Below are positions 1 through 12,134 of a stretch of 64,000 nucleotides of DNA, piece after piece. Origin of the DNA: Candidatus Woesearchaeota archaeon CG1_02_57_44 (lineage in GTDB: Archaea; Nanobdellota; Nanobdellia; Woesearchaeales; CG1-02-57-44); the NCBI GenBank assembly GCA_001871415.1, contig MNWW01000058.1, positions 1 to 64,000 on the forward strand, written 5' to 3'. Under the pieces are notes generated by a model. It saw only the letters and a list, made by a program, of their open reading frames with translations. It had not been told where the DNA came from and made no database searches. Made by a program: the position numbers and the translations under genes. Position 1 is the first letter of the stretch, and every line of letters starts with the position of its first letter.

Positions 1-440
1 CCATAGTCACCGAACCAGAAGACCCCCAAGGGCACATTGACAAAGAGGACCATGCGCAGCGGCAGCACGGTGGTCAGCCAGGACAGGACCACAAAGACAG
101 GAACCTGCCATCGCATGAACCGCCGGACCCTCCTGCCGATCCAGTACCCCATGCTCGCCGCGAACGCGCCGATAAAGATGCCGATGACCGCGGGGTGCAC
201 GCCAAGCGCGACAGCGCCGCCCGCGGCAGCGGCCGCTCCCAGAGTGCACAGGGGGCAATGCGCCGCGGCGCGTGGCAGGGCGAGCAGGGACAGCAGCGAC
301 GCGAGCATGCCTGTGCCGACCATCGATGCGAGACCTCCGCGCGTCTTGCGCGCAGAGGTGGCGCGCGACGGCATCAGTGACGACGAGAGCTCGCGCGGTC
401 GCGCGCGGTCAGTGCATGTGTGCGGTGAGTGTCTGTCCAT
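1..440 (-). CDS. Membrane protein with signal-like segment followed by HCPLC motif (runs off window end)
   Basis: Not in the ORF track. Manual translation from ATG 440: ...SLLSLLALPRAAAHCPLCTLGAAAAAGGAVALGVHPAVIGIFIGAFAASMGYWIG...; open to position 1; starts 6 nt after the DUF411 stop. Confidence 0.75.
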   Translation of the reverse strand, partial: MDRHSPHTCTDRARPRELSSSLMPSRATSARKTRGGLASMVGTGMLASLLSLLALPRAAAHCPLCTLGAAAAAGGAVALGVHPAVIGIFIGAFAASMGYWIGRRVRRFMRWQVPVFVVLSWLTTVLPLRMVLFVNVPLGVFWFGDY

Positions 441-446
441 GCTGCA

Positions 447-899
447 TCATATCGTCATGAAGGTGCTCACGCGGCCATCCTTGCCCACGGCGCTTATTGC
501 CCATGGCCCGGTCTTGGGCCCTGGCATGCCGGGCGTGCCTGACGGCATGGCGGCAAGCCCGATGCCAGCTATATCGGGCTGCTCCTGCATCAGCTTGCTG
601 ATCGCTTCCACCGGGACGTGCCCTTCGACAAAATAATCGCCGACCCTGGTCGTATGGCAGCTATACAGCGTTGTGGGGACACCGTACTGCTGCTTATAGA
701 CATTCACGTCCGGCACATCGATGACATTCACTTTCCATCCCTTGCTCATCAGGTATGAACCATACGATCCACAGCATCCGCAGCTCGCGGACTTGTAGAT
801 GGTGAGCTCGCCAGCGGCAGCGACTGGCTCGGGCTTGAGCACGAGTGCCCCGACACTGGCGATGATCACGACAAGCAGTATCCAGACTATTGGTTTCAT
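447..899 (-). CDS. DUF411-family exported metal-binding protein (CopG-like)
   Basis: Signal peptide, YKSASCGCC, SCHT, VEGHVP, MPSGTPGM motifs. Confidence 0.9.
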   Translation of the reverse strand: MKPIVWILLVVIIASVGALVLKPEPVAAAGELTIYKSASCGCCGSYGSYLMSKGWKVNVIDVPDVNVYKQQYGVPTTLYSCHTTRVGDYFVEGHVPVEAISKLMQEQPDIAGIGLAAMPSGTPGMPGPKTGPWAISAVGKDGRVSTFMTI

Positions 900-1933
900 T
901 GTCTCACCTCTTGATTCTCGCGCCTCAGCGCGATGATGATGGATGCGACTAGGGCGACGAGCAGCAGCGCGCCTATCCCATGCAGAAACGTATCGTTCGC
1001 GAGCATCCAGCGTTGGATCCCGTAAAACTGGTCCTTGAGGCCGAACATGTTGAATCCGTTGGCCTTCCAGGTGCCTCCATAGAAGACGAAGACCAGCCCG
1101 ATCAGGATATAGATGGCGCCGGAGACCACGCTGAGCAGGGCGACGTCGCGGCCGCGCAGGCGCACTTGCCTTCGCACCCAGGATGCCCTGCTTACCCGTC
1201 CACGAAAGAGGATGGCCAGCAGGAACAGGGGGACGAATATCCCCATGCTATAGGACATCATCAGCAGCGCCGCCTTCCCGTAGTGGCCTATGACCGCCGC
1301 CATCAGCAGCACGCTGGAGAGCACCGGCCCGATGCACGCGGTCCAGCCGAGCGCGAACAGGGCGCCTGTCCCGAGCATGCCCCCTGCGCTCTGCCTTGCG
1401 CGGCCGGGGTCGCGGGAGGCAAAGGGGCTGGCAAAGCCGTGTCCTGACAAGGTCAATGAGCCAAGCGCGATGAACACGAGTCCTGCGAGCGGAACGAGCC
1501 ACCCTGCGCCGGAGAAGAGAGTCACCAGTGTGCGGCCAAGCGCGGCTGCTATCAATCCCATGCTGACAAATGTCCCTGCGAAGCCAAGGAAGAAGAAGAG
1601 TGTTGCCCGCACCAGGCGATGAGGGTCCTGAAACGTGCTGGCCAGATACGCGGGCAGGATTGGCAGGATGCAGGGCGAGAAGATGCTGGTCAGGCCTGCA
1701 AGGAACGCGATGAACAGGGACACGGTGGCGAGCGTCTGCACAGCCAGCTGCTGGTTGTAGTCCGTGATGGCCGCCAGCCCCGGGGGGAGCTCCGCCAGAG
1801 CCGGCAGCGCCAGCAGGAAGAACGCGCAGAGCATCGCCATGGCGCGAAGCGCTTGCGCACATCGTCGATACCCTGACGGGCATCGATCCGCCGCCCAGGA
1901 GCGCACTGCTGTGGCCTGTCGCTGGCGTCTCAC
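896..1933 (-). CDS. ccdA: CcdA/DsbD-type transmembrane electron transporter
   Basis: FSPCILPILP and GWTACIGPVL catalytic Cys motifs, multiple TM helices; start GTG 1933 (overlaps upstream stop, GGAGG before it) or ATG 1840. Confidence 0.88.
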   Translation of the reverse strand: MRRQRQATAVRSWAADRCPSGYRRCAQALRAMAMLCAFFLLALPALAELPPGLAAITDYNQQLAVQTLATVSLFIAFLAGLTSIFSPCILPILPAYLASTFQDPHRLVRATLFFFLGFAGTFVSMGLIAAALGRTLVTLFSGAGWLVPLAGLVFIALGSLTLSGHGFASPFASRDPGRARQSAGGMLGTGALFALGWTACIGPVLSSVLLMAAVIGHYGKAALLMMSYSMGIFVPLFLLAILFRGRVSRASWVRRQVRLRGRDVALLSVVSGAIYILIGLVFVFYGGTWKANGFNMFGLKDQFYGIQRWMLANDTFLHGIGALLLVALVASIIIALRRENQEVRQ

Positions 1934-3018
1934 GTCGCCGCCTCCGTGACGATGCTGCGCGTCCCGTTGGCAAGGTAGGTCGTGCCGACGCCCAGCCCGC
2001 TCATGTCCCGGAAGATGAACGATCCATCCGGCTCCTGCGTCCCGACCTGCTGCCAAACGGTAATCAGATTGGCATACATACCCATCTCGCTGCTCAAGAT
2101 CACCGTCGGCACATTGGTGATGCCATAGCGGGCGAGCATCGCCTTGCCTTCATCGCTCTGCGCGGAGAGCGACTGCTCCGTGCCGAAGCCAACGCCGAAA
2201 CGCGAGAGGATCCCCTTATGCACGCTCACATCGTAGCAGTCGGCGCAGGCAGGCGCGGTGATGAAGGTGATGTTGACGAGCCCTTGCACCTCGCCCGTCG
2301 TTGGATCCTCGAAGGGAGCGTCAGGCGTGAACAGGTACGATCCGTCCTGACGGGCCTGCGACGCAAGGTTCGGCGCGATGTCAGGATAGGCCGAAAGCGA
2401 TGCGTCGATGAGCAGCGCCGGCAACTTTGTCACATTCCATTGCCCTGCGGCAATGCCCGCGCGCGCGTCGGGGGCTGCGACATGCTGGATGTCAAGCGCC
2501 ACGCCGCTGCCGCGGAGCGCGTCCAGCGCGGATGAATAATTGAAGCATTGCACGCACGATGATTCCAGGACGACGGCGCGAACGACGCCCACGGTGGTGA
2601 GTGCATTCGCGTCCACAAAGGGTATCGCCTTAGTCTGCACCACAGGATCCTGGAGCTTGGCCTTCTCCAGTTCACCGACCATGACCATCGCCGGCAGGCG
2701 CGTGATGCCGTGCTGATCGATGAGCGCTCTGGCCTGCGCTATCGACTCCGCTGTCGATCCGGGACCGGACATCAGCAGCGTGGTTTCCTGGGTCACGTTC
2801 GCCTGCTGCTTGATGCGCGCGACATCTGGCAGAGTCGGGCAGTCCGCGCAGCCAGGGTCGATGAGTGTCAGCTGCAGCTGCGCGGGCCGGGAGCGCTCCT
2901 GTGTTGCGACGATAGCATCATCGACGGTGCGGGACATCGATATGCTGACCGTGGCATCATACACGATGAGCGCGAGCAGTAGCGCAGCCATCAGTGGCAA
3001 GATCCTCATGTGATTCAT
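1930..3018 (-). CDS. Membrane-anchored exported protein with three CxxC thioredoxin-like modules
   Basis: N-terminal TM; CADC, CVQC, CADC each followed later by a cis-Pro-like motif (GITRLP, NVTKLP, GITNVP). Confidence 0.7.
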   Translation of the reverse strand: MNHMRILPLMAALLLALIVYDATVSISMSRTVDDAIVATQERSRPAQLQLTLIDPGCADCPTLPDVARIKQQANVTQETTLLMSGPGSTAESIAQARALIDQHGITRLPAMVMVGELEKAKLQDPVVQTKAIPFVDANALTTVGVVRAVVLESSCVQCFNYSSALDALRGSGVALDIQHVAAPDARAGIAAGQWNVTKLPALLIDASLSAYPDIAPNLASQARQDGSYLFTPDAPFEDPTTGEVQGLVNITFITAPACADCYDVSVHKGILSRFGVGFGTEQSLSAQSDEGKAMLARYGITNVPTVILSSEMGMYANLITVWQQVGTQEPDGSFIFRDMSGLGVGTTYLANGTRSIVTEAAT

Positions 3019-3100
3019 CCTCCTTGTCGACCAGTACTATCTCCTGAACGGCACCATCGTTGAGCACCGGGTCTCTTCCTATGTCGTCACCCAGCTTCCC

Positions 3101-3478
3101 TCAGCAACCACCGACCATCTGCGGCAGGTTCTGGATGTTCTGCTGCAAGGTGCCGCCAGCAGCGCCGCCGGACGCGGCTCCGCCTGAGGGCGCCGACGAC
3201 CCCGAGAGCGGGTTCACTGATGCAGTTGCTCCATTGAGTGAGGCGCCCTGCAGCTTGGCTTTCACGCCAGCGAGCGTGAATGCCTGCACGGTCGCCATGA
3301 CCAGCAGCAGGCCCAGTATGACCCCGAGCACGATGCCGCGGGTGTTCCTTGGCGCTGGCGTCTGGGGCGGAAGGTGGTGGTATGCGGGTGGTGCAGGATG
3401 TGCTCCTGCTGCTTGCCCTGTCCCCCGCGTATGCGAGGCCGTATGCTCTTCGTGATGTGCGTCTTTGGTCTGTGCCAT
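3101..3478 (-). CDS. Single-TM protein with His-rich N-terminus, Gly/Ser/Ala linker and C-terminal LPQMVGGC
   Basis: ATG 3478 preceded by GAGGGA; TM GIVLGVILGLLLVMATVQA. Confidence 0.75.
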   Translation of the reverse strand: MAQTKDAHHEEHTASHTRGTGQAAGAHPAPPAYHHLPPQTPAPRNTRGIVLGVILGLLLVMATVQAFTLAGVKAKLQGASLNGATASVNPLSGSSAPSGGAASGGAAGGTLQQNIQNLPQMVGGC

Positions 3479-3505
3479 GCTGTATCCCTCGTCCCGAACT
3501 CTCAT

Positions 3506-3647
3506 TATATCTCACTATGCTGTGCCTGTACGGTGCTGTTCCTGCACGCCGCGCGTGTCATACAGATACCCGCCCTGCCGCGTCGCAATATATCTCACTA
3601 TGGTGTGCCTGTATGGTGCTGTTCCTGCACGATGCTGTGCTTGTACG
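3506..3647. repeat. Two 43-bp direct repeats (3506-3548, 3589-3631; 2 mismatches) 40 bp apart, plus a partial third copy
   Basis: TATATCTCACTATGSTGTGCCTGTAYGGTGCTGTTCCTGCACG read directly. Confidence 0.9.
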
Positions 3648-3711
3648 ACCTTCACGCCGTACAGCGCAGGTATCATTGTCCATCTTCCTTTATCCTCTGT
3701 CTCCCTTTTCT

Positions 3712-4413
3712 CTAGCACCCTCCGACCATGCCGGGCAAGGCCTTGATACTGGAAGGATCTGTGCCAGCTACCTGCATGCCAAGCCCCACCATGTCGCGTG
3801 GGAAGAACAAGGTCTTCCAGCGCATGACCTCGCGCACCACCTGCGCGTCCGAGTAGTCGGTGTTGTGCAGCAGCGAGAGCGTCACCGCGAGCAGCGCGGG
3901 GTTGTGCTGGCAGCCGCAGAGGCTCTCGCCATTGCTCGCAGCGGCGATGGGGCCCACGCCGCAGCAGTACTCGCAGGAGAGCCCATGCGGCTTTGCCGCG
4001 AGCTCAAGGTAGCGGTTCCATGCGTCAGGGTCGGTGCGCTTGACCTCGTCCTTGATGGTGGGGAACCACTGGGAAAGATACGTGAGGCTGTTGATGGGAT
4101 CGTCAAAATTCGCCCCGCCGATGTACTGGGTGTATTCAGGCGTTCCTGTAGGGAACAGCACGGTCATGACAGCCTGCTCGTCTGTTGCGCCCTGTAATTC
4201 AGGGAAGACTGCCGCGAGGTTCTGCGCTGTTCCCTGCAGGCCATCGAGGTCGATGCCTCCGAGTTCCCTGGCAGTGCCGGAGAGCGAGGCCCTCGTCGAT
4301 GGTCTCGTCAACTGGTCCGCGGCCGCGGACAAGGCGTTGACCTGCACCTGATTGAACAGGACCAAGACCGCGACCAGCGCGATCGCGATGTACACAGCTG
4401 GATGTTCTTCCAT
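3712..4413 (-). CDS. Exported Cys-rich protein (CEYCC, CGCQH) with C-terminal LPGMVGGC
   Basis: N-terminal TM/signal; motifs read from translation. Confidence 0.8.
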   Translation of the reverse strand: MEEHPAVYIAIALVAVLVLFNQVQVNALSAAADQLTRPSTRASLSGTARELGGIDLDGLQGTAQNLAAVFPELQGATDEQAVMTVLFPTGTPEYTQYIGGANFDDPINSLTYLSQWFPTIKDEVKRTDPDAWNRYLELAAKPHGLSCEYCCGVGPIAAASNGESLCGCQHNPALLAVTLSLLHNTDYSDAQVVREVMRWKTLFFPRDMVGLGMQVAGTDPSSIKALPGMVGGC

Positions 4414-4438
4414 GGTATCACGTCGTTGTGTTGTCTGT

Positions 4439-4573
4439 CTATGGATGGTATGGATGGTGATGATGATGATCGCGGCCTTGGATACGCATCGCGATGGTCG
4501 GTGCCCTGCAGGCCCCCATCAGCCGATATGGGCCCGTTGCTGTCGGTCGCACCTGCTCATCTTCGCTGATCAT
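4439..4573 (-). CDS. Putative 44-aa His-tailed leader peptide
   Basis: MISEDEQVRPTATGPYRLMGACRAPTIAMRIQGRDHHHHHPYHP*, between the operator/promoter and the first operon gene; below the ORF-track cutoff. Confidence 0.4.
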   Translation of the reverse strand: MISEDEQVRPTATGPYRLMGACRAPTIAMRIQGRDHHHHHPYHP

Positions 4574-4590
4574 TGCACGCTTTTCTAAGC

Positions 4591-4607
4591 TTTACATACC
4601 GTGTAAA
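4591..4607. promoter_or_regulatory. Palindromic operator TTTACA-N5-TGTAAA, candidate site for the adjacent BlaI/CopY repressor
   Basis: Inverted repeat in the AT-rich divergent promoter; TACA/TGTA half-sites are typical of BlaI/MecI/CopY. Confidence 0.65.
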
Positions 4608-4645
4608 AGTAAAAGTTAATAAAGGTTTCTGTGCTTCTATGTCCC

Positions 4646-5053
4646 ATGCGCAGCATGTCCCTGTCCAGCAAGGTCAGCCAGCCCGTGCTCAGCGACGTTG
4701 AGGCGAGCATACTGGACGTGCTCTGGGACAAGGGCGAAGCCCGGGTACGCGAGATCCATGACATTGTGAGCAAGAAGCACCAGGTCGCCCATACAACTAT
4801 AGCAGTCCTGCTGGATAGGATGCATACGAAACAACTGGTCACAAGGAAAGTAGAATCCTGTAAGGGCGGCTTTCGCTACATCTACCGCCCTGTGGAATCA
4901 AAGGACGAGTTCAAGAGGAGTGCGATGCAGCACGCTGTGGACAAGCTCATAGACACCTTCGGTGCCAGCGCGACGAGCTACTTCAATGAGCGCTTCGGCA
5001 CATCAGCCAAGGCATCAAAGACACGCGACAGCGCGGCTGAGGGAGGCAGATAA
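4646..5053 (+). CDS. BlaI/MecI/CopY-family transcriptional repressor
   Basis: LSDVEASILDVLW..GEARVREIH..VAHTTIAVLLDRMHTKQLVTR..YIYRP. Confidence 0.92.
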   Translation: MRSMSLSSKVSQPVLSDVEASILDVLWDKGEARVREIHDIVSKKHQVAHTTIAVLLDRMHTKQLVTRKVESCKGGFRYIYRPVESKDEFKRSAMQHAVDKLIDTFGASATSYFNERFGTSAKASKTRDSAAEGGR

Positions 5054-5054
5054 G

Positions 5055-5816
5055 ATGTGCCTCACATGCTTTCGCTCATTCATGGCGATCCCCTATAATT
5101 TCTGGCTCACCACCGGGAGCCTCACCGCCGCTGCCGTGATGATACTTCTCTTCTACACCTATCGGGACACGATGAGCAACAGGGTCAAGATAGCGCTCAT
5201 CTACGGGAGCATCGTGCTGACGGTGTTTCCCATATTCCACTATGTGTACGCCAAGACCTGCGGGTCGGTCATGATCTCCTGCGGCAAATGGCACGCGCTG
5301 CTCTACTCGCTGATGGGCAGTCTCGGCATCGCTCTGGTCGCGCTGCTATTGCTCACGCCCCTCCTGGTGAGATGGCGCAAGCAGCGCGTCCAGCCCGGGA
5401 CTGACCTTGACGCCCGCGTGCGTATGCTGGCCACCGCGGTCGGCGTGAAGGTGCCGAGGGTCTATGTCAAGGACAGCGCCCAGCCCGTAGCGTACACGGT
5501 CAGCCACATCTCGCCATTGATCATCATCAGCGTCGGCATGCTGGAGCTGCTCGACCAGGACGAGCTTGACGCCGTGCTGCTCCATGAGCTCGGTCACATA
5601 CGCCAACGCACCGGCCTCCTGAAGACCGCGCGAAGCATGCTGCGCCTGATGCTGCCAATCGCAGGGTTCAATGCGTTCGGCAAGGAGCTTGATGAGGAAG
5701 AATCGCGGGCGGATATGGTCGCGGCGCATGTGCAAGGAACCACCGAGCACCTGCTCTCGGCCAAGGAGCGCCTGTCCTTGTTCGCGGATGAGCAGGCGAT
5801 GCCATCTTCGCTATGA
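5055..5816 (+). CDS. M56/M48 (BlaR1/HtpX-like) membrane zinc metallopeptidase
   Basis: 3 TM helices, ELDAVLLHELGH zincin motif, EEESRAD; starts 1 nt after the repressor. Confidence 0.88.
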   Translation: MCLTCFRSFMAIPYNFWLTTGSLTAAAVMILLFYTYRDTMSNRVKIALIYGSIVLTVFPIFHYVYAKTCGSVMISCGKWHALLYSLMGSLGIALVALLLLTPLLVRWRKQRVQPGTDLDARVRMLATAVGVKVPRVYVKDSAQPVAYTVSHISPLIIISVGMLELLDQDELDAVLLHELGHIRQRTGLLKTARSMLRLMLPIAGFNAFGKELDEEESRADMVAAHVQGTTEHLLSAKERLSLFADEQAMPSSL

Positions 5817-5881
5817 GGTGTTGATGCCATCCTCGCTATGAGGTGTTGATGCCATCCTCGCTATGAAGTGTCGATGCCATC
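5798..5881. repeat. 25-bp tandem repeat x3.4 spanning the peptidase stop codon
   Basis: GATGCCATCCTCGCTATGAGGTGTT units. Confidence 0.92.
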
Positions 5882-6065
5882 ACTGCTCTGACCTATCCCT
5901 GATGCGCTCGTGCAGATGTATGCATGTGCAGAGAGAGCGCCCGTCCCTTAGCAGCATCCATCACTACGCATCGCTGATTCTTGCGTGAGCCATCTGCGCA
6001 TGCAGACCAATGTGATTGGGTCTCTGTTGTAGGACCTAGGAAAAAGAAACACTGAAAAGAAAAAC

Positions 6066-6149
6066 TGCGGGAGACAGGGTTCGAACCTGCGTATGCGCTA
6101 AGCAAATAGGCCCTGAACCTATCCCGTTTGACCACTCCGGCACTCCCGC
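6066..6149 (-). tRNA. tRNA-Leu(CAG)
   Basis: GCGGGAG acceptor, ATAGG-TTCAGGG-CCTAT anticodon arm, long variable arm, GGTTCGAACC. Confidence 0.95.
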
Positions 6150-6246
6150 GCAAAGAAGCAAAAAAGCCCGTCAGAATATAAAGGTAACGGTGCTGTATCC
6201 CTCTGTGCTATCCCTCAACGCAGGGACATTCGCCACGTCCAGTCAC

Positions 6247-8166
6247 TTATGCCTTTTTCCCATGATCATGCCCGTCAAAGAATGCTTTTATCGCCCGGCC
6301 AGGATGCAGGCTGGCGTCCATGCGCCAATCTGTAGGAAAGCAGGATTTGTACGCGCTCCATGAATAGCGCTCATCCAGGAACACGACGACGCCCTTGTCA
6401 TGCTCACGTCGGATGCATCTGCCGGCAGACTGTATCACTTTTGTCAGCGCAGGAAATGTATACCCATAGTCGAATCCCCTGCCATAGCGCTTGTCATAGT
6501 ACGCGATGAGCTGCTGCGTCTCCAGGTCCGGCTTCTGCAAGGGCAAGCCGACGACGATGACACCAGAGAGCACGCCCGGCAGGTCCAGGCCCTCAGAGAA
6601 GCTACCGGCCGCGACGCCCAGCAGCACCCCGTGCTTGGACCCCACAAGCTTGGCCAACAACGCATCTTTGTCCTCTTTCTCCATGCCCGCCTGCTCGCGC
6701 AGCAACGGCCGATGCTGGAGATGCACCGCGACCGCGTCCCGCAATGCGTATGATGGGAAGAACACCGCACAGTTGCCCGGAAGCGCCGCGACAACAGCGT
6801 CTATCTCTTTTGCGATGTCGGCGTACTGCCCCACGGACCGCTTCGCGAACCGCGTCGTGGTCTTGGGCACTATCAGCAGCAATCGGTTCTCATGGGGGAA
6901 CGGGCTGGGGAACGCGAGGCATGGTGTATCCTTGGGCAGTCCCAGCAGGTCGCGGTACATCTCGGTCGGCGTCAGCGTGCCGCTCATGACAATGGCGCCC
7001 TTGCATCCCTGCAGCACCTCGCCAGAGAACAGCGATGGATCAAGGCACCGATACAGCAGCGACTGCTTGCCCTGCTCTGTGCGCGCGATGCGGATGAACC
7101 CTGTCTCCGCGCCGTCCTGACCAGGTACCACTCTGCTGCCGTCAGCACCGAGCCACTTGTCCAGGAACTCGACAATGCCGTGCACGCTGCTGCGCTGCTG
7201 ACGCAGCCTGATGTCCTCTGCTGCGATGATCAATTCCTCGACCGCGTCCTCATCCAGCCAGACCTCATCACGTTGCACCAGGCGCTCTCCATCGCGCGGC
7301 TGCAGCGCGAGGAACTGGCGCTCGAGCTCGCGCAGCGCCTTGGCCGCGTCCCTCTTCCTGTGCGTCCTGCACTCCTTGATGGCGCGGGAGAGCATATAGG
7401 CGGTCAGACGCGCCGACGCCATCTCGCGAAGGCGTGATGGAAGATTGTGCGCTTCATCAACAATCACCACCGCGTCCTTGAGCGCGATGTTGCTGCGGGC
7501 AAGGAAGCTCTCGCGTATGCGCGGCTGGAACAGGTAGTTGTAGTCCGCGACAATGACCCGCGCTTTCTTGGCCAGCTCCATGGCAGTCTCATACGGGCAG
7601 ACACCGTGCCGTGCTGAACTTGTGGTCACCTGCGCGAACGACGAGGGGACGACCGACAGCTCGCCGACAGCTACCGTGCCGTCATGCCCGCGGGACGCCT
7701 TGTAGTACTTGCATCTGCCGGATTCGCGCATATTCTTGCAGTATTCAGGGAACTCAGAAGGGGGCATATTCGCGGCAGCGTCCTGCAGGCAGAAATGGCG
7801 CTTGCCGATGATGTCCGCCGCTGGCAATACAACACCATGGCGCTCCTGGATGAGTTGCAAGGTCTTGATGGCGATGGCATGCTGCGTGTGCCTGCTCGTC
7901 AGGAAGATGACCTTACCGGTCACGGGTAATGAGGGGGCAAGAGACGCCGCGGTCTTTCCCAGGCCCGTAGGGGCATTCGCGACAATGCTCCGGCCAGAGG
8001 CCAGCGCTCCTGCTATGGCATTGATGAGCGACTGCTGCGGCTTGCGCGGCTGCGCGAAGGGAAAGAGCATGGTAGGCTTGTGCACCTGATTCGGCTTGCC
8101 GGTATCGCCGCGGGTTGCAGCCGTTTCAGCAGCACCTTTCATCGTGACAGTCCCCTCGCGTTTCAT
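6247..8166 (-). CDS. xpd: XPD/Rad3-family Fe-S DNA helicase
   Basis: APTGLGKT, Fe-S Cys, DEAH, SGT, QSAGRCIR; TATA-like element about 25 nt before ATG 8166. Confidence 0.9.
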   Translation of the reverse strand: MKREGTVTMKGAAETAATRGDTGKPNQVHKPTMLFPFAQPRKPQQSLINAIAGALASGRSIVANAPTGLGKTAASLAPSLPVTGKVIFLTSRHTQHAIAIKTLQLIQERHGVVLPAADIIGKRHFCLQDAAANMPPSEFPEYCKNMRESGRCKYYKASRGHDGTVAVGELSVVPSSFAQVTTSSARHGVCPYETAMELAKKARVIVADYNYLFQPRIRESFLARSNIALKDAVVIVDEAHNLPSRLREMASARLTAYMLSRAIKECRTHRKRDAAKALRELERQFLALQPRDGERLVQRDEVWLDEDAVEELIIAAEDIRLRQQRSSVHGIVEFLDKWLGADGSRVVPGQDGAETGFIRIARTEQGKQSLLYRCLDPSLFSGEVLQGCKGAIVMSGTLTPTEMYRDLLGLPKDTPCLAFPSPFPHENRLLLIVPKTTTRFAKRSVGQYADIAKEIDAVVAALPGNCAVFFPSYALRDAVAVHLQHRPLLREQAGMEKEDKDALLAKLVGSKHGVLLGVAAGSFSEGLDLPGVLSGVIVVGLPLQKPDLETQQLIAYYDKRYGRGFDYGYTFPALTKVIQSAGRCIRREHDKGVVVFLDERYSWSAYKSCFPTDWRMDASLHPGRAIKAFFDGHDHGKKA

Positions 8167-8299
8167 GGTGCATGCGTTGCCAGCAGCTGCAATAAAAGGT
8201 TTTGTGTCAGGAATCCGGAAAAGTCGCATACTTTGCGCTCAAGCCGCGTGGAAAGAACTCTGGCGCGAAATGCCAGCAGACATCTCGCTCGTATGGTCC

Positions 8300-9337
8300 T
8301 TATCCGAACAGCTTCTTCCAGCTGGACAGGTAGTCGATGATCACCTGTCTGCGCACTATCCACAGATGCAGTCCGATGAGCACCAGCGCGATGCCATAGG
8401 TGGCGGTCTGCAGGATGGCCATGCTGAGCGCGGGTTCAGCAGCTACGCCAAAGAGCGATAACCCTAGGACGGCCGCGGCCTCAAAAGCACCGGCGATGCC
8501 GACCACATGCCCGGCACTTGCGGCAAGCCCGCTGAGCAGGTCGACGAACAGGAACGGCAACAGTCCGATGTTGATGCCAAATGCCAGCCCGGAAACCCAT
8601 GCAGCAAGGATGGAGAACACGCGCATGAGCACAGAGAGCAGAAAGATCGCCAGGAACTGGCCCTTGCCAATCTTTTGACCCTCGAAGAAACCCTGCACGC
8701 CGTTCTTCAGCTTTTCCAGTGCGCTGGCGGGCATGACATAGGAGAGGGCCCGAAACACAATACGCTCCATGGTCTGCTGTCGGCTGCGCAGCAGGGAAAG
8801 CAAGAGTCCCAGCGCGAGCAGCACCACCGTCAGAACAATGATGCCGATAAGGTAGGGGCCCTGGCGCGCCTGCGGAAAGAGCCAGATGGCAATACCCATC
8901 AATAGGACAAGGAACACACCGTCAAGCACTTTTTCCAGCACGATGTTGCCATAGACGCTGCTGAGTGCGATGTCTGCTCGTTGTGAAAGATAATGCCCCC
9001 GGATGAACTCACCGATATTGATGGGCAAGAGCAGGTTCATCACATGCCCGATGACGGTCGCGTGATAGAGTTCGCTGTACGCGCAGGGTTTGATGCCCAT
9101 GAGCAGGTAGCGCCATCGCAGGGCCTTGACCGCGAGCATGAGCAAGATGAGCAGCACGATGACAGGGACCAGACGCCAGTCGGCATGAGTGAGTACGGTG
9201 GTGAATGACTGAAGCGATATCTGGCTAAACAAGTAGTAGACAATAAGGCCCGTACCAAAAAAGAATATGGGGATGCGGTACCGAAACAAAAGGTCGCGCA
9301 ACAGCGCGCCCGTCTCACGCAGCAGTCGCTTGGCCAT
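8300..9337 (-). CDS. Flippase-like lysylphosphatidylglycerol synthase TM-domain protein
   Basis: ALRWRYLL, NLLLP.NIGEFIR, EKVLD, GAFEAA; polytopic. Confidence 0.85.
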   Translation of the reverse strand: MAKRLLRETGALLRDLLFRYRIPIFFFGTGLIVYYLFSQISLQSFTTVLTHADWRLVPVIVLLILLMLAVKALRWRYLLMGIKPCAYSELYHATVIGHVMNLLLPINIGEFIRGHYLSQRADIALSSVYGNIVLEKVLDGVFLVLLMGIAIWLFPQARQGPYLIGIIVLTVVLLALGLLLSLLRSRQQTMERIVFRALSYVMPASALEKLKNGVQGFFEGQKIGKGQFLAIFLLSVLMRVFSILAAWVSGLAFGINIGLLPFLFVDLLSGLAASAGHVVGIAGAFEAAAVLGLSLFGVAAEPALSMAILQTATYGIALVLIGLHLWIVRRQVIIDYLSSWKKLFG

Positions 9338-9453
9338 GTGATCTAGGGGGAAAACATTGTTTATAACACCTTCTGTCGTTCAGATCGCATCATCGCACCA
9401 ATCCAGCGCAGTGGCGAGCTTAGCAACAGGAAATGCTGAGCGGCGCGCGAAGA

Positions 9454-10227
9454 CTACGCAGAGCCCTTGGTCGTGTCAGCGTTGCCTCCCAGCCAATCAT
9501 AGCCTTCCTGCTCTATCTTGAGCGCCAGACTCGCGTCACCGCTCTTGACTATCCTTCCCTGCACCATGACATGCACCTTGTCAGGCTTGACATGGTCCAG
9601 GATGCGCTGGTAGTGCGTGATGAGCAAGAATCCCATACCCTTCTTGCGCTGCTCATTGATGACCGCGGCAACAGCCCTGACACCGTCGACATCAAGGCCG
9701 GAATCAGGCTCGTCCAGGATGGCGATGGTCGGCTGAAGCAAGGCGAGCTGCAGCATCTCCGAACGTTTCTTTTCGCCGCCCGAAAATCCCTGGTTGAGCT
9801 GACGCTCCGCCATGGCCGGGCTCATGCGAAGGGAGCCTAGCGCCGTATCAAGCTCATGGGAAAAAGCATTGCCTTCAACAGCACTTGCATCAGACGTCCC
9901 TTCCTTTCCAAGCGCATTCTTCGCCGCCTTCACGAACGAGATGATATTGACCCCCGGAATCGCGGGCGGATGCTGGAACAGCAGAAACAACCCCGTTCTG
10001 GCCCGTTCGTCAGCTTCGGTGTTCGTGATATCCTTGCCGTCCATAAGAACACTGCCTGAATCAATGGTGTACATCGGACTTCCCATCACCGCGCTGGCAA
10101 GTGTGCTCTTGCCGCTGCCATTAAGCCCCATGATGGCGACGACTTCGCCAGGCTTCACTGACAAGCTGACCCCTTTGACTATTTCCTTGTCTTTGATGCT
10201 GACGTGCAAATCTTTTATTTCAAGCAT
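9454..10227 (-). CDS. sufC: Fe-S cluster assembly ATPase SufC
   Basis: GLNGSGKST, FSGGEKKR, LDEPDSGLD, ITHYQRIL. Confidence 0.95.
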   Translation of the reverse strand: MLEIKDLHVSIKDKEIVKGVSLSVKPGEVVAIMGLNGSGKSTLASAVMGSPMYTIDSGSVLMDGKDITNTEADERARTGLFLLFQHPPAIPGVNIISFVKAAKNALGKEGTSDASAVEGNAFSHELDTALGSLRMSPAMAERQLNQGFSGGEKKRSEMLQLALLQPTIAILDEPDSGLDVDGVRAVAAVINEQRKKGMGFLLITHYQRILDHVKPDKVHVMVQGRIVKSGDASLALKIEQEGYDWLGGNADTTKGSA

Positions 10228-10855
10228 GGTTGTTCCCTCCTGATGATGCGATGAGCGTGGATGCTGGAGATTTCTGCCCGGAATCACCGGCAGCAGCATT
10301 TGCCTCAATCGCCTCAAGATATTCCAGTTGTGCCTTCATCACCGCTTTCTTGTACGCCTGCAGCGCGAGCGTGGCGCACTTGAGGCGCATGGGCACGACA
10401 GGGATGCCGAGGATGCCGAGCATGCCCTCAGGCGTCAGGCCCATGAGCGCTGACAATGGTCTGCCTTTCATCGCTTCGCTGAGCTTTGACGCGGCGGCCA
10501 TGCTGATGCAGCACCCCCTGCCCTTGAAGCTGATGTCCTCGATGATTGCGTTGCCTATCTCATCAACAGCAGCGCGTGTCGGGCGAGTCCCGGAATCAGC
10601 AGCAGTTTCACTTCGTACCCTGATATAGACCGCTATCTCATCGCCGCAGTGAGGATTGTGGTCATGATAGCACCATGCTCCCGCCACCTCCCTGAAGTTG
10701 CAGGGATGCTTGCAATGATGCATGATGTCATCGCGATACATGGCATCGGCCGACGAGGAGCGTCCATCATCGCGACTAACAGGAGTGCCGCGTACTGATT
10801 CATCATGCGCCTCCCCCGCGCGCCCGCTACCCGTCAGGTCTGCGCTCTCATTCAT
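10220..10855 (-). CDS. sufU: SufU/IscU-like scaffold or sulfur-transfer protein
   Basis: NPHCGD, GCCISMA, RLKCATL. Confidence 0.9.
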   Translation of the reverse strand: MNESADLTGSGRAGEAHDESVRGTPVSRDDGRSSSADAMYRDDIMHHCKHPCNFREVAGAWCYHDHNPHCGDEIAVYIRVRSETAADSGTRPTRAAVDEIGNAIIEDISFKGRGCCISMAAASKLSEAMKGRPLSALMGLTPEGMLGILGIPVVPMRLKCATLALQAYKKAVMKAQLEYLEAIEANAAAGDSGQKSPASTLIASSGGNNHA

Positions 10856-12134
10856 GCTGCCACCTCGCGGCAATCCCTGCGACGGCATCGGTAAACAAGC
10901 GCACCTCAGCAATATCATTGTATACGTAAAAACTCGCGCGGGTCGTGCCATTGACGCCAAGCGCGGCCATCAGCGGCATGGCGCAGTGGTGCCCACCGCG
11001 CACAGCGATGCCCTGCGCGTCCAGCAAGGTACTCATGTCATGCGGATGCGCAGGTGCGGTGAAGCTTGCGATGCCCGATGCGTTGGCGTTGCGTCCATCA
11101 GCAGTGATACCAGCGTCGCCAAGAACCCGCACGCCATCAATCACCGACAGCGCCTCGCGTGCCTTCCTGCCGAGCAATCCGACGTGTTCATGCACCTGCT
11201 CCATGCCAAGCGAAGAAAGATAATCAACAGCCGCTCCCAAGCCGACAGCTTCGGCTATAGGCGGCGTCCCCGCTTCAAAGCGATGTGGCAATTCCGCGAA
11301 CTCGGTATCCTCCTTGCCCACCTTGCGTATCATATCGCCTCCCATGATAAAGGGTGATAGCTCTGACAACGCATCTTCAGTTCCCCACAACACGCCGATG
11401 CCGGTCGGCCCCAGCATCTTATGGCCGGAGAACGCGAGGAAATCCGCGCCTATCTTCCTGACATCCGTTGGTTGATGAGGGATGCATTGCGCGCCATCAG
11501 CAACCAGAAGCGCGCCAGCGTCATGCGCGATGTCCGCGAGCTCCCTGATATTCTGATTGGTGCCCAATGCGTTGCTGGTCTGCGTGACAGCCAGCACGCG
11601 AAGTTTAGGCGCCGTGGTAGTGCCGTTTGCTGGACCGCGCGTCGTCCTCCGCAGTCCAGCCACCAGCTCTTTGACCTGTTCAATATCAACCATGCCGTCC
11701 TGCTGGCGGGCGATGAGAAAGCGTGCGCCTGTGCGGATGCATTGCTGCTGCCAGGGAACGAAGTTCGCGTGGTGCTCGAGCTCGGTCACCATGACCGCGT
11801 CGTCGCGGCCAAGTCCCAGCCCATAGGCAGGGATGTTGAGCGCTTCGGTCGCGTTCTTCGTGAATATGATGTCCTGCGACCGCGCTCCTATGAATCGCGC
11901 GACCTTCTCCCGGGCACCCTCATACGCGTCGGTCGCCTCTCCGGCGAGGGTGTGCACACCCCGATGGATGTTCGCGTTATGCCGGACATAGTACTGTTCC
12001 ATCGCGTCAAGCACCTGTCGGGGCTTCTGCGTGGTCGCCGCGTTGTCTAGATACGCTAATGGCTCGCCATGAACACGGCGCGAGAGCAGGGGAAAATCAT
12101 CCCTGATACCCGCAATATTTTTTGACTCTGCCAT
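10848..12134 (-). CDS. sufS: Cysteine desulfurase SufS
   Basis: YLDNAATTQKP, FSGHKMLGPTG, RGGHHCA. Confidence 0.97.
   Translation of the reverse strand: MAESKNIAGIRDDFPLLSRRVHGEPLAYLDNAATTQKPRQVLDAMEQYYVRHNANIHRGVHTLAGEATDAYEGAREKVARFIGARSQDIIFTKNATEALNIPAYGLGLGRDDAVMVTELEHHANFVPWQQQCIRTGARFLIARQQDGMVDIEQVKELVAGLRRTTRGPANGTTTAPKLRVLAVTQTSNALGTNQNIRELADIAHDAGALLVADGAQCIPHQPTDVRKIGADFLAFSGHKMLGPTGIGVLWGTEDALSELSPFIMGGDMIRKVGKEDTEFAELPHRFEAGTPPIAEAVGLGAAVDYLSSLGMEQVHEHVGLLGRKAREALSVIDGVRVLGDAGITADGRNANASGIASFTAPAHPHDMSTLLDAQGIAVRGGHHCAMPLMAALGVNGTTRASFYVYNDIAEVRLFTDAVAGIAARWQHE

Follow-up and report, generated by a model that had tools for sequence, protein, structure and literature searches.

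PetR/PetP of Synechocystis sp. PCC 6803 is, in working principle, the tested system closest to the locus reported here. The accessible text of the preprint on this pair (bioRxiv 10.1101/2020.07.31.226407) reports copper-dependent cleavage shown in E. coli extracts, a GAC-N5-GTC site for PetR with petE/petJ as targets, and two conserved Met residues in the PetP loop joining transmembrane helices 2 and 3 that were proposed, not shown, to be copper ligands. In Staphylococcus aureus, the P1' residue of BlaR1 cleavage in BlaI is given as F102 in the accessible part of PMC9834060; according to that of PMC7253601, the CopY/BlaI site in Lactococcus is TTTACA-NN-TGTAAA, and CopY and BlaI use TACA-N2-TGTA. 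No paper on an archaeal BlaR/BlaI-type relay was found in a literature search that misses most subscription journals. Here we describe a candidate for such a relay, and the gene cassette beside it, in a 64,000-nucleotide (nt) stretch of DNA from Candidatus Woesearchaeota archaeon CG1_02_57_44 (contig MNWW01000058.1, positions 1 to 64,000; hereafter the window). As the initial annotation had proposed, the locus is a divergon: the genes of a BlaI-family repressor (blaI, 4646-5053) and a membrane zincin (5055-5816) lie 1 nt apart on the plus strand, and those of F, E, D, CcdA, a DUF411 protein and an HCPLC membrane protein follow one another on the minus strand, where F, E and D are our letters for otherwise unnamed products.

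The repressor scored 68 bits against the PF03965 winged-helix family (cut-off 22.6; E 1e-18), and its profile matched the structures PDB 2g9w, 1sd4 and 2k4b. The AT-rich divergent promoter contains a predicted operator, TTTACA-N5-TGTAAA (4591-4607; core TTAC-N7-GTAA, 4592-4606), and the same core palindrome recurs upstream of blaI elsewhere, usually just before a TATA-like box. All 16 BlaI loci contain it. So do 20 of 65 other loci, mostly at scattered positions; other spacers occurred in 0-4 of the 16 BlaI loci, TTAC-N4-GTAA in one. The half-sites of the window equal those of CopY and BlaI, whereas the TACA-N2-TGTA operator is not the form used here, with seven rather than four nucleotides between TTAC and GTAA. 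The spacer of 7 accounted for 30 sites in later blaI loci, versus 0-4 for other spacers. In a held-out set, 13 of 16 blaI promoters carried the site, most of them 46-50 nt before the start; this set was made up of 23 loci minus six duplicates of training loci and one without a recognised open reading frame (ORF), and one of its members (L096) comes from a genome already used in an earlier site-prediction check.

In the genome of the window, the operator is the sole match in 10 of 10 positions to TTACA-N5-TGTAA. Where the site stood before F with no blaI nearby, a blaI gene elsewhere in the same genome had been predicted in advance and was found in 2/2 cases, versus 0/3 for genomes with the dCache-type regulator described below; in four further genomes with unlinked blaI, the site lay 13-169 nt before F or its promoter. 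Among 301 sampled genomes of the phylum, the repressor was present in 22, all of which belong to the 76 F-positive genomes and none to the 225 F-negative ones, and a tree-aware pair test had three usable pairs, none against the association and too few to reach significance. It might be argued that the repressor-protease pair regulates only itself and stands beside the cassette by chance, given that it occurs in only 15 of 80 loci and that 3 of 16 held-out promoters have no site; with F in 22/22 BlaI genomes, and the site before F even where blaI is on another contig, this is hardly credible. Regulation through the palindrome by the neighbouring repressor is, judged from sequence, very probable.

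Direct copper sensing of the CopY type, which the initial annotation had brought up for the repressor, did not hold. The C-terminal Cys-x-Cys is absent from the window repressor and from 16 aligned with it, and the repressor is therefore not a CopY; its score against TIGR02698 was 39.9 bits, with a cut-off of 122.

The zincin is a membrane gluzincin (HELGH; PF01435, E 3e-11; PF05569 weakly, 3e-4) with three helices predicted from hydropathy, and ends at 253 amino acids (aa) without the beta-lactam sensor domain. H177 and E178 were kept in 30/30 distinct homologues and H181 and E216 in 29/30, and the motif aligns with that of BlaR1; one homologue search with the zincin returned three proteins. 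Two cysteines, C69 and C76, fall in the predicted outer loop that connects helices 2 and 3 and were found in all 30. On the repressor side, the last BlaI helix is missing and the protein ends soon after F113, a phenylalanine invariant in 17/17 sequences and aligned with F102 of S. aureus BlaI. The earlier proposal of a BlaR/BlaI-like relay over a surface thiol/metal pathway is well supported by the shared operator, the strict co-occurrence and the conserved catalytic and cleavage-site residues, and we consider it likely that repressor and protease form a proteolytic relay.

The neighbourhoods of F were compared over 80 genome loci, fetched with F's alignment and scanned by single-sequence searches; because many of these loci are short contigs, the counts near F are lower bounds. 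E was found in at least 68, D in 63, CcdA-type proteins in 54 (a count that takes in a few DsbD_TM paralogues), DUF411 in 20, the repressor-protease pair in 15 and HCPLC in 11. The conserved core cassette consists of F, E, D and CcdA, whose homologues recur together across genomes as the initial annotation had expected, and DUF411 and HCPLC are accessory. D (1930-3018, minus strand) is a single-anchor protein with three CxxC thioredoxin-like repeats, matching Thioredoxin_3 weakly and below cut-off. Its cysteines were kept in 65-66/66, 64/64 and 62/62 sequences of the homologue alignment, and 61/66 homologues have three CxxC, mostly with acidic dipeptides. CcdA (896 to about 1840, the start codon being approximate, minus strand; PF02683, E 3e-12) carries the DsbD_TM domain of a transmembrane electron transporter, with both catalytic Cys in 41/41 sequences and a match to PDB 5vkv (E 4e-21). 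An electron path from CcdA to D is very likely. Contig C65 (L085:337-1833) encodes another multi-CxxC protein resembling D, whose N-terminus is long and His-rich, without the operator.

The accessory DUF411 protein (447-899, minus strand; PF04214, E 4e-21) is a CopG homologue with a CGCC motif and an N-terminal hydrophobic anchor. It matched PDB 6wis (E 5e-19), and CxCC was found in 20/20 sequences; 6wis is CopG of Pseudomonas aeruginosa, described in the accessible text of PMC7558416 as a thioredoxin-like protein that holds a four-copper cluster through CxCC. In seven loci (L039:18363-18710 and six others) there is a small exported protein in which eight or nine Cys are invariant (CC..PC.YC..CDC..CGEC); its gene usually comes just after that of CopG. 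The HCPLC membrane protein (1-323, minus strand), accessory and without a Pfam match, is cut by the contig end and is found in full, at 167 aa, on contig C13; both of its Cys were kept in 12/12 sequences.

F (3712-4413, minus strand) joins a membrane anchor to an undescribed helical domain with the residues C147-x2-C150-C151 and C166-x-C168-x-H170 (CEYCC/CGCQH), and ends LPGMVGGC233. E (3101-3478, minus strand) has one membrane helix, a low-complexity linker and the C-terminal tail LPQMVGGC. That both proteins stop directly after an LPxMVGGC motif, as noted earlier, was confirmed. F has 539 homologues, mostly in Woesearchaeota and other DPANN lineages by name, which suggests a DPANN host, and with no Pfam family among the 120 matches listed. 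Close homologues have CxxCC in 120/120 and the GGC end in 119/120; distant representatives have CxxCC..CxCxH in 136/150 and the GGC end in 114/150. In E, the terminal Cys was present in 69/70 and the tail residues were invariant or nearly so in the 63 aligned. Because positive charges precede their anchors (2.4 before vs 0.2 after in F, 2.3 vs 0.9 in D), the sequences suggest that F and D lie outside; E, at 1.7 vs 1.5, is ambiguous. The stop codons after F (58 TAA, 15 TAG, 9 TGA) and E (38, 20 and 11) do not fit a selenoprotein read through from GGC to U, and no longer fused form of F was found in the range covered, 591-2000 aa, which makes this weak evidence. The fusions noted join F to a preceding membrane domain that carries a GCP(S/T/V)CG motif (P0014, P0038, P0040 and P0122) and, in a Desulfobacterales cluster (P0256), to FKBP.

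Modelling of the soluble part of F, tail included, gave an all-helical structure with a predicted local distance difference test score (pLDDT) of 96 and a predicted template-modelling score (pTM) of 0.92; for the final residues, a full-length model built on a shallower alignment gave scores of 50-68. In these models the tail of F may dock on its own domain. The structural search with full-length F was dominated by the membrane helix. The best fold match was the CcmH structure 2hl7, which is weak (Z 4.6, root-mean-square deviation 3.5, 75 aligned residues, 17% identity); Foldseek gave nothing under E 1 for the F models, and the PDB sequence search gave no match. F was not accepted as a CcmH: PF03918 is found neither in the genome nor among the 25 families listed for 103 homologues, and the fold match is too weak for membership. 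A role in cytochrome c maturation was likewise rejected, with no PF01578 match and no CcmH in the 82%-complete genome and ResB absent in 101 genomes.

The terminal GGC also resembles the GGCGG arm of SoxY, and one could read the tails as arms that carry sulfur in the manner of SoxY and handle polysulfide or thiosulfate at the surface, with CcdA and thioredoxin serving them as SoxV and SoxW would. A rhodanese-fused structural look-alike of F in Atlas (template-modelling score 0.52) and the mini-proteins ending GGGCG(G) between F and E in some loci speak for this; no SoxY (PF13501) and no DoxA was found in the 82%-complete genome, however, the tails end at GGC, the F model is all-helical, and sulfur-oxidation genes are not among the recurrent neighbours, which makes the sulfur-carrier explanation very improbable. 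The mini-proteins themselves, 45-57 aa long and ending GGGC(G)(G), directly follow F in about ten loci (for example L019:10656-10829, L028:781-948 and L030:10683-10847) as a third tail-bearing partner that is absent from the window. Our preferred reading gives the tails another part, that of thiolate arms feeding the Cys/His cluster of F, for which our confidence stays a little short of even. A literature text search for the tail or the CEYCCG motif, a weak test, showed neither in any of the papers listed. No description of the F/E pair was found in the searched libraries and papers, a search that misses most subscription journals, and the pair is possibly a new effector class.

As to the signal, the site also stands before copper genes. 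The strict site occurred within 4 kb upstream of the Cu-ATPase gene in 9/20 cases in BlaI genomes vs 2/40 controls, the 20 cases coming from 19 genomes and the controls being taken from the ATPase matches listed, not at random. It stood at -8, -18 and -18 before three Cu-ATPases, and Cu-ATPase and cupredoxin operons as far as 75 kb from F, or on other contigs, have it in front of them as well. A Cu-ATPase was found in 64/76 F genomes vs 127/225 others, and lay within 12 kb of F in 21/45 placeable genomes (an ATPase position was listed for 45 of the 64 genomes with both genes). The CopG homologue points to copper too; cupredoxins were present in 25/80 loci, and a CsoR-family repressor in 7/80 distant loci. 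The initial annotation had suggested looking for a Cu-ATPase or chaperone beyond position 1. There is no Cu-ATPase where the operon continues on contig C13, and it is contig C76 that holds a Cu-ATPase and an HMA chaperone, together with a DUF7343 regulator. On balance, copper is probably the main signal.

Two other signals or purposes were weighed against these data. With the same relay and operator, the signal could be general extracytoplasmic disulfide or oxidant stress, with C69/C76 as a redox switch and the copper genes as passengers. The cassette would then be a repair chain of CcdA and thioredoxin, its GGC tails supplying the resolving cysteines and F acting as a thiol oxidoreductase of CcmH-like fold. 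The core of CcdA and a triple-CxxC protein fits this, as do the best fold match of F, a thiol oxidoreductase with CxxC in a similar helical bundle, the sensor loop with Cys in place of the Met of PetP, and the neighbouring peroxiredoxins (7/80 loci) and DoxX-family proteins (8/80). We nevertheless regard oxidant stress as rather unlikely, as the operator also precedes distant Cu-ATPase and cupredoxin operons, the five clustered Cys and the His of F go beyond the needs of a dithiol, and the CcmH match is weak. Alternatively, the cassette could mature surface cuproproteins instead of serving detoxification: copper would induce cupredoxins, and F, E, D and CcdA would load copper and hold the Cys ligands of the cupredoxins in reduced form, much as plastocyanin is induced by PetRP and CuA is served by Sco/TlpA systems. 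PetRP controls a cuproprotein and not resistance genes, as far as the accessible preprint text goes (bioRxiv 10.1101/2020.07.31.226407), cupredoxin genes are found in the 25 loci given above, several directly behind the operator, and DPANN CuA-type cupredoxins are reported in the accessible part of PMC10936187. Most loci show no cupredoxin, however, the only cupredoxin match of this genome is a domain fused to HMA-DsbD_2 on C76, and excess copper is what CopG and the exporter of P1B-1 type suggest, so that cuproprotein maturation appears improbable.

Our preferred reading, which we hold to be slightly more likely than not, is that a PetRP-like copper relay induces a surface thiol-repair and Cu(I)-handling cassette; in this scheme binding, cleavage and the copper signal are inferred. 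A repressor dimer on TTAC-N7-GTAA, next to the TATA-like box, would block both arms, blaI-zincin on one side and F-E-D-ccdA-copG on the other, and roughly every second genome would have a Cu(I)-ATPase/cupredoxin operon blocked as well. Binding of copper to C69/C76, or their oxidation driven by copper, would activate the cytoplasmic zincin, which would cut the repressor before F113. Electrons of cytoplasmic thioredoxin would then pass through CcdA to the three CxxC of D, and D may keep reduced the terminal Cys of E and F as well as the Cys/His cluster of F. The tails would act as tethered thiolate arms that take up Cu(I) or mixed disulfides and hand these to the cluster, and CopG and the ATPase would complete copper handling. 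A bolder version, which we hold only as a tentative and rather doubtful idea, is that F founds a hitherto undescribed class of cluster proteins that hold Cu(I) by thiolates at the surface, are loaded and unloaded by membrane-tethered Gly-Gly-Cys-COOH arms (its own and that of E) and are recharged by CcdA and the triple thioredoxin; with the cysteine-gated, copper-activated protease and the operator, these would form a complete copper-defence regulon of DPANN archaea and small-genome bacteria.

Several observations weigh against the copper relay. The site is missing from the three held-out blaI promoters already mentioned and from locus L081, and Fisher values for the co-occurrence with F overstate it because the genomes are related. 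Since the repressor ends a few residues past F113, most homologues would lose no more than a short stretch through cleavage at this point, and the N-terminal CxxC of the protease is found in only 14/30. The outside location of F, D and E rests on a charge bias that is strong for F and D and weak for E. As for copper itself, 11/20 Cu-ATPases in BlaI genomes have no strict site, and the best that the ATPase promoter of this genome offers is a match in 8 of 10 positions, a quality reached 126 times in the genome. No Cu-ATPase match was obtained in 12/76 F genomes, genome G137 has both BlaI and F but gave no Cu-ATPase match, and 127/191 Cu-ATPase genomes are without F. The constant core, CcdA and the thioredoxin-like D, is a thiol-redox module, with CopG in only 20/80 loci.

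The repressor-protease pair is present at this locus as annotated, but the cassette does not always come with it: the pair is one of three membrane-linked regulators that almost exclude one another. Near F, the 80 loci have BlaI and zincin in 15, a dCache-DUF835-winged helix protein in 21 and a transmembrane DUF7343 protein in 19, with 2 overlaps among the three types vs 12.5 expected; most cassette loci use other regulators than BlaI. On a quick tree of F, the regulator labels cluster, and the BlaI label needs 9 changes, at least 5 of them on well-supported branches. The dCache-DUF835-winged helix protein (about 570 aa) is a membrane one-component regulator, divergent before F in its 21 loci (L016, L019, L021 and 18 more) and never found with BlaI; it had been considered a histidine kinase, an identity that its Pfam domains do not bear out. 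The third type, a membrane protein of two helices whose outer loop is of the Cys-x-Cys type and which has a DUF7343 winged helix (for instance L018:7812-8306 and L084:3102-3641), also stands before the Cu-ATPase operon of this genome and is a candidate third Cu/thiol sensor.

A further 80 metagenome loci hold distant relatives of F, some with bacterial marker genes; E is present in 63 of them and BlaI in 25. Ten of these BlaI loci are of the window's type, 8 with a window-type site. The other 15 form a type apart, encoded on the same strand, with a CxC loop and, in 13/15, a palindrome of its own, TAC-N8-GTA. In this type a bacterial-type BlaI and M56 pair with the CxC outer loop heads the F-E cassette (L191, L194, L200 and 12 other loci), and a TACTAC-N5-GTAGTA-like palindrome lies over the -10 region.

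The rest of the locus needs few words. The initial annotation had placed a His-tailed small ORF of 44 aa (4439-4573, minus strand) at the head of the operon. Homologues of it were found in 0/80 loci (best tblastn E 0.39 in 180 loci), and its GC content at third codon positions (GC3) is 0.60 vs 0.69-0.84 in the other eight genes; because of the missing homologues and the atypical GC3, it is probably not a gene. Conserved Cys, which had been claimed for every product, are found in F, E, D, CcdA, DUF411 and HCPLC and not in this ORF, whose single Cys is unconserved. Where several overlapping stop and start codons had been seen, the single true overlap is that of CcdA and DUF411 (ATGA, 896-899), and apart from the blaI-zincin gap the remaining intergenic gaps measure 82-233 nt. 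Between F and E, a 49-nt direct repeat (two copies, 92% identical, 3500-3631) has no further copy elsewhere in the genome and is local and probably incidental. So, probably, are the three to four 25-nt tandem repeats spanning the zincin stop codon (5788-5887), because the genome has 108 such arrays.

The assembly measures 1.53 Mb and is 82% complete, and the window begins at the start of its contig, C44. Contig C13 overlaps the window at its end, its final 311 nt agreeing with window positions 1-311 at 310/311, and the operon runs on into C13 with five further genes, of which four have relatives that recur near F elsewhere and four have no Pfam match above cut-off. They encode (L083:8728-11959, contig C13) a WCISKH..NCC helical protein, a WQVCHNVC membrane protein, an HSVDL..HH exported protein, a Met/His-rich exported protein and, as the last, DUF302. 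On the other side of the locus (window 6066-12134) lie ordinary neighbours, namely a tRNA-Leu, an XPD-type helicase, an LPG-synthase-like membrane protein and SufC-, NifU- and cysteine-desulfurase-like genes.

Taken as a whole, the locus offers a concrete regulon candidate, with repressor, protease, sensor residues, operator and targets, in an uncultured archaeal group with almost no known regulation, and ties an unannotated family present in a quarter of the sampled phylum genomes (76/301) to copper and thiol stress. Its parts resemble known systems to different degrees. The DUF411 protein keeps the CxCC of P. aeruginosa CopG (PDB 6wis), but has an N-terminal hydrophobic segment and is an accessory. 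The electron chain recalls CcdA-ResA/CcmG-CcmH and SoxV-SoxW-SoxY in its CcdA with both Cys, its exported CxxC proteins, the loosely CcmH-like bundle of F and the terminal GGC arm; unlike in those chains, the genome shows no heme lyase, CcmH or SoxY, three CxxC are united in one protein, and F and E fall outside Pfam. Sensorless BlaI and M56 pairs on actinobacterial and Bacillaceae plasmids (pBD2 and pMSPYR101, known from annotation only) form the same unit beside CopC, CopD, multicopper oxidase, TlpA and VKOR, and one of their Cys aligns with C76 of the window protease, although their proteases are longer and no F or E is among the annotated neighbours listed.

With CopY/CopR, as far as the accessible text of PMC7253601 describes them, the window repressor shares the fold family, the TTTACA half-site and the link to a Cu-ATPase gene, but it has no C-terminal Cys-x-Cys, is paired with a protease and uses a longer spacer. 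Similar to S. aureus BlaI/BlaR1 (accessible part of PMC9834060) are the repressor family, the gluzincin HExxH..E, the P1' Phe, the divergon layout and the TACA half-site; the penicillin-binding sensor domain, the fourth helix and a beta-lactamase target are absent, and the half-sites stand 3 bp further apart. The likeness to PetR/PetP, in so far as the preprint text describes that pair, extends to a BlaI-family gene followed in the same order by an M48/M56 membrane protease without a beta-lactam sensor, the cytoplasmic HExxH, the cleavage-site Phe, the lack of a copper site like that of CopY, two soft ligands in the loop joining helices 2 and 3, and a palindrome with an AC..GT core. The archaeal pair differs in having Cys for Met in that loop, three helices for four, a repressor shortened after the Phe, an AC-to-GT spacer of 7 versus 5, and as targets a surface thiol cassette and a Cu exporter instead of plastocyanin and cytochrome c6. 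Likened by description and not by sequence alignment with PetR/PetP, the archaeal regulator would work like PetRP but is no member by its defining residues, site or targets. It would bring to the archaea a switch for which tests have so far been made in bacteria only, and would be, with Cys here and Met there in the same loop, a natural test of copper detection by sensorless BlaR-type proteases such as PetP.

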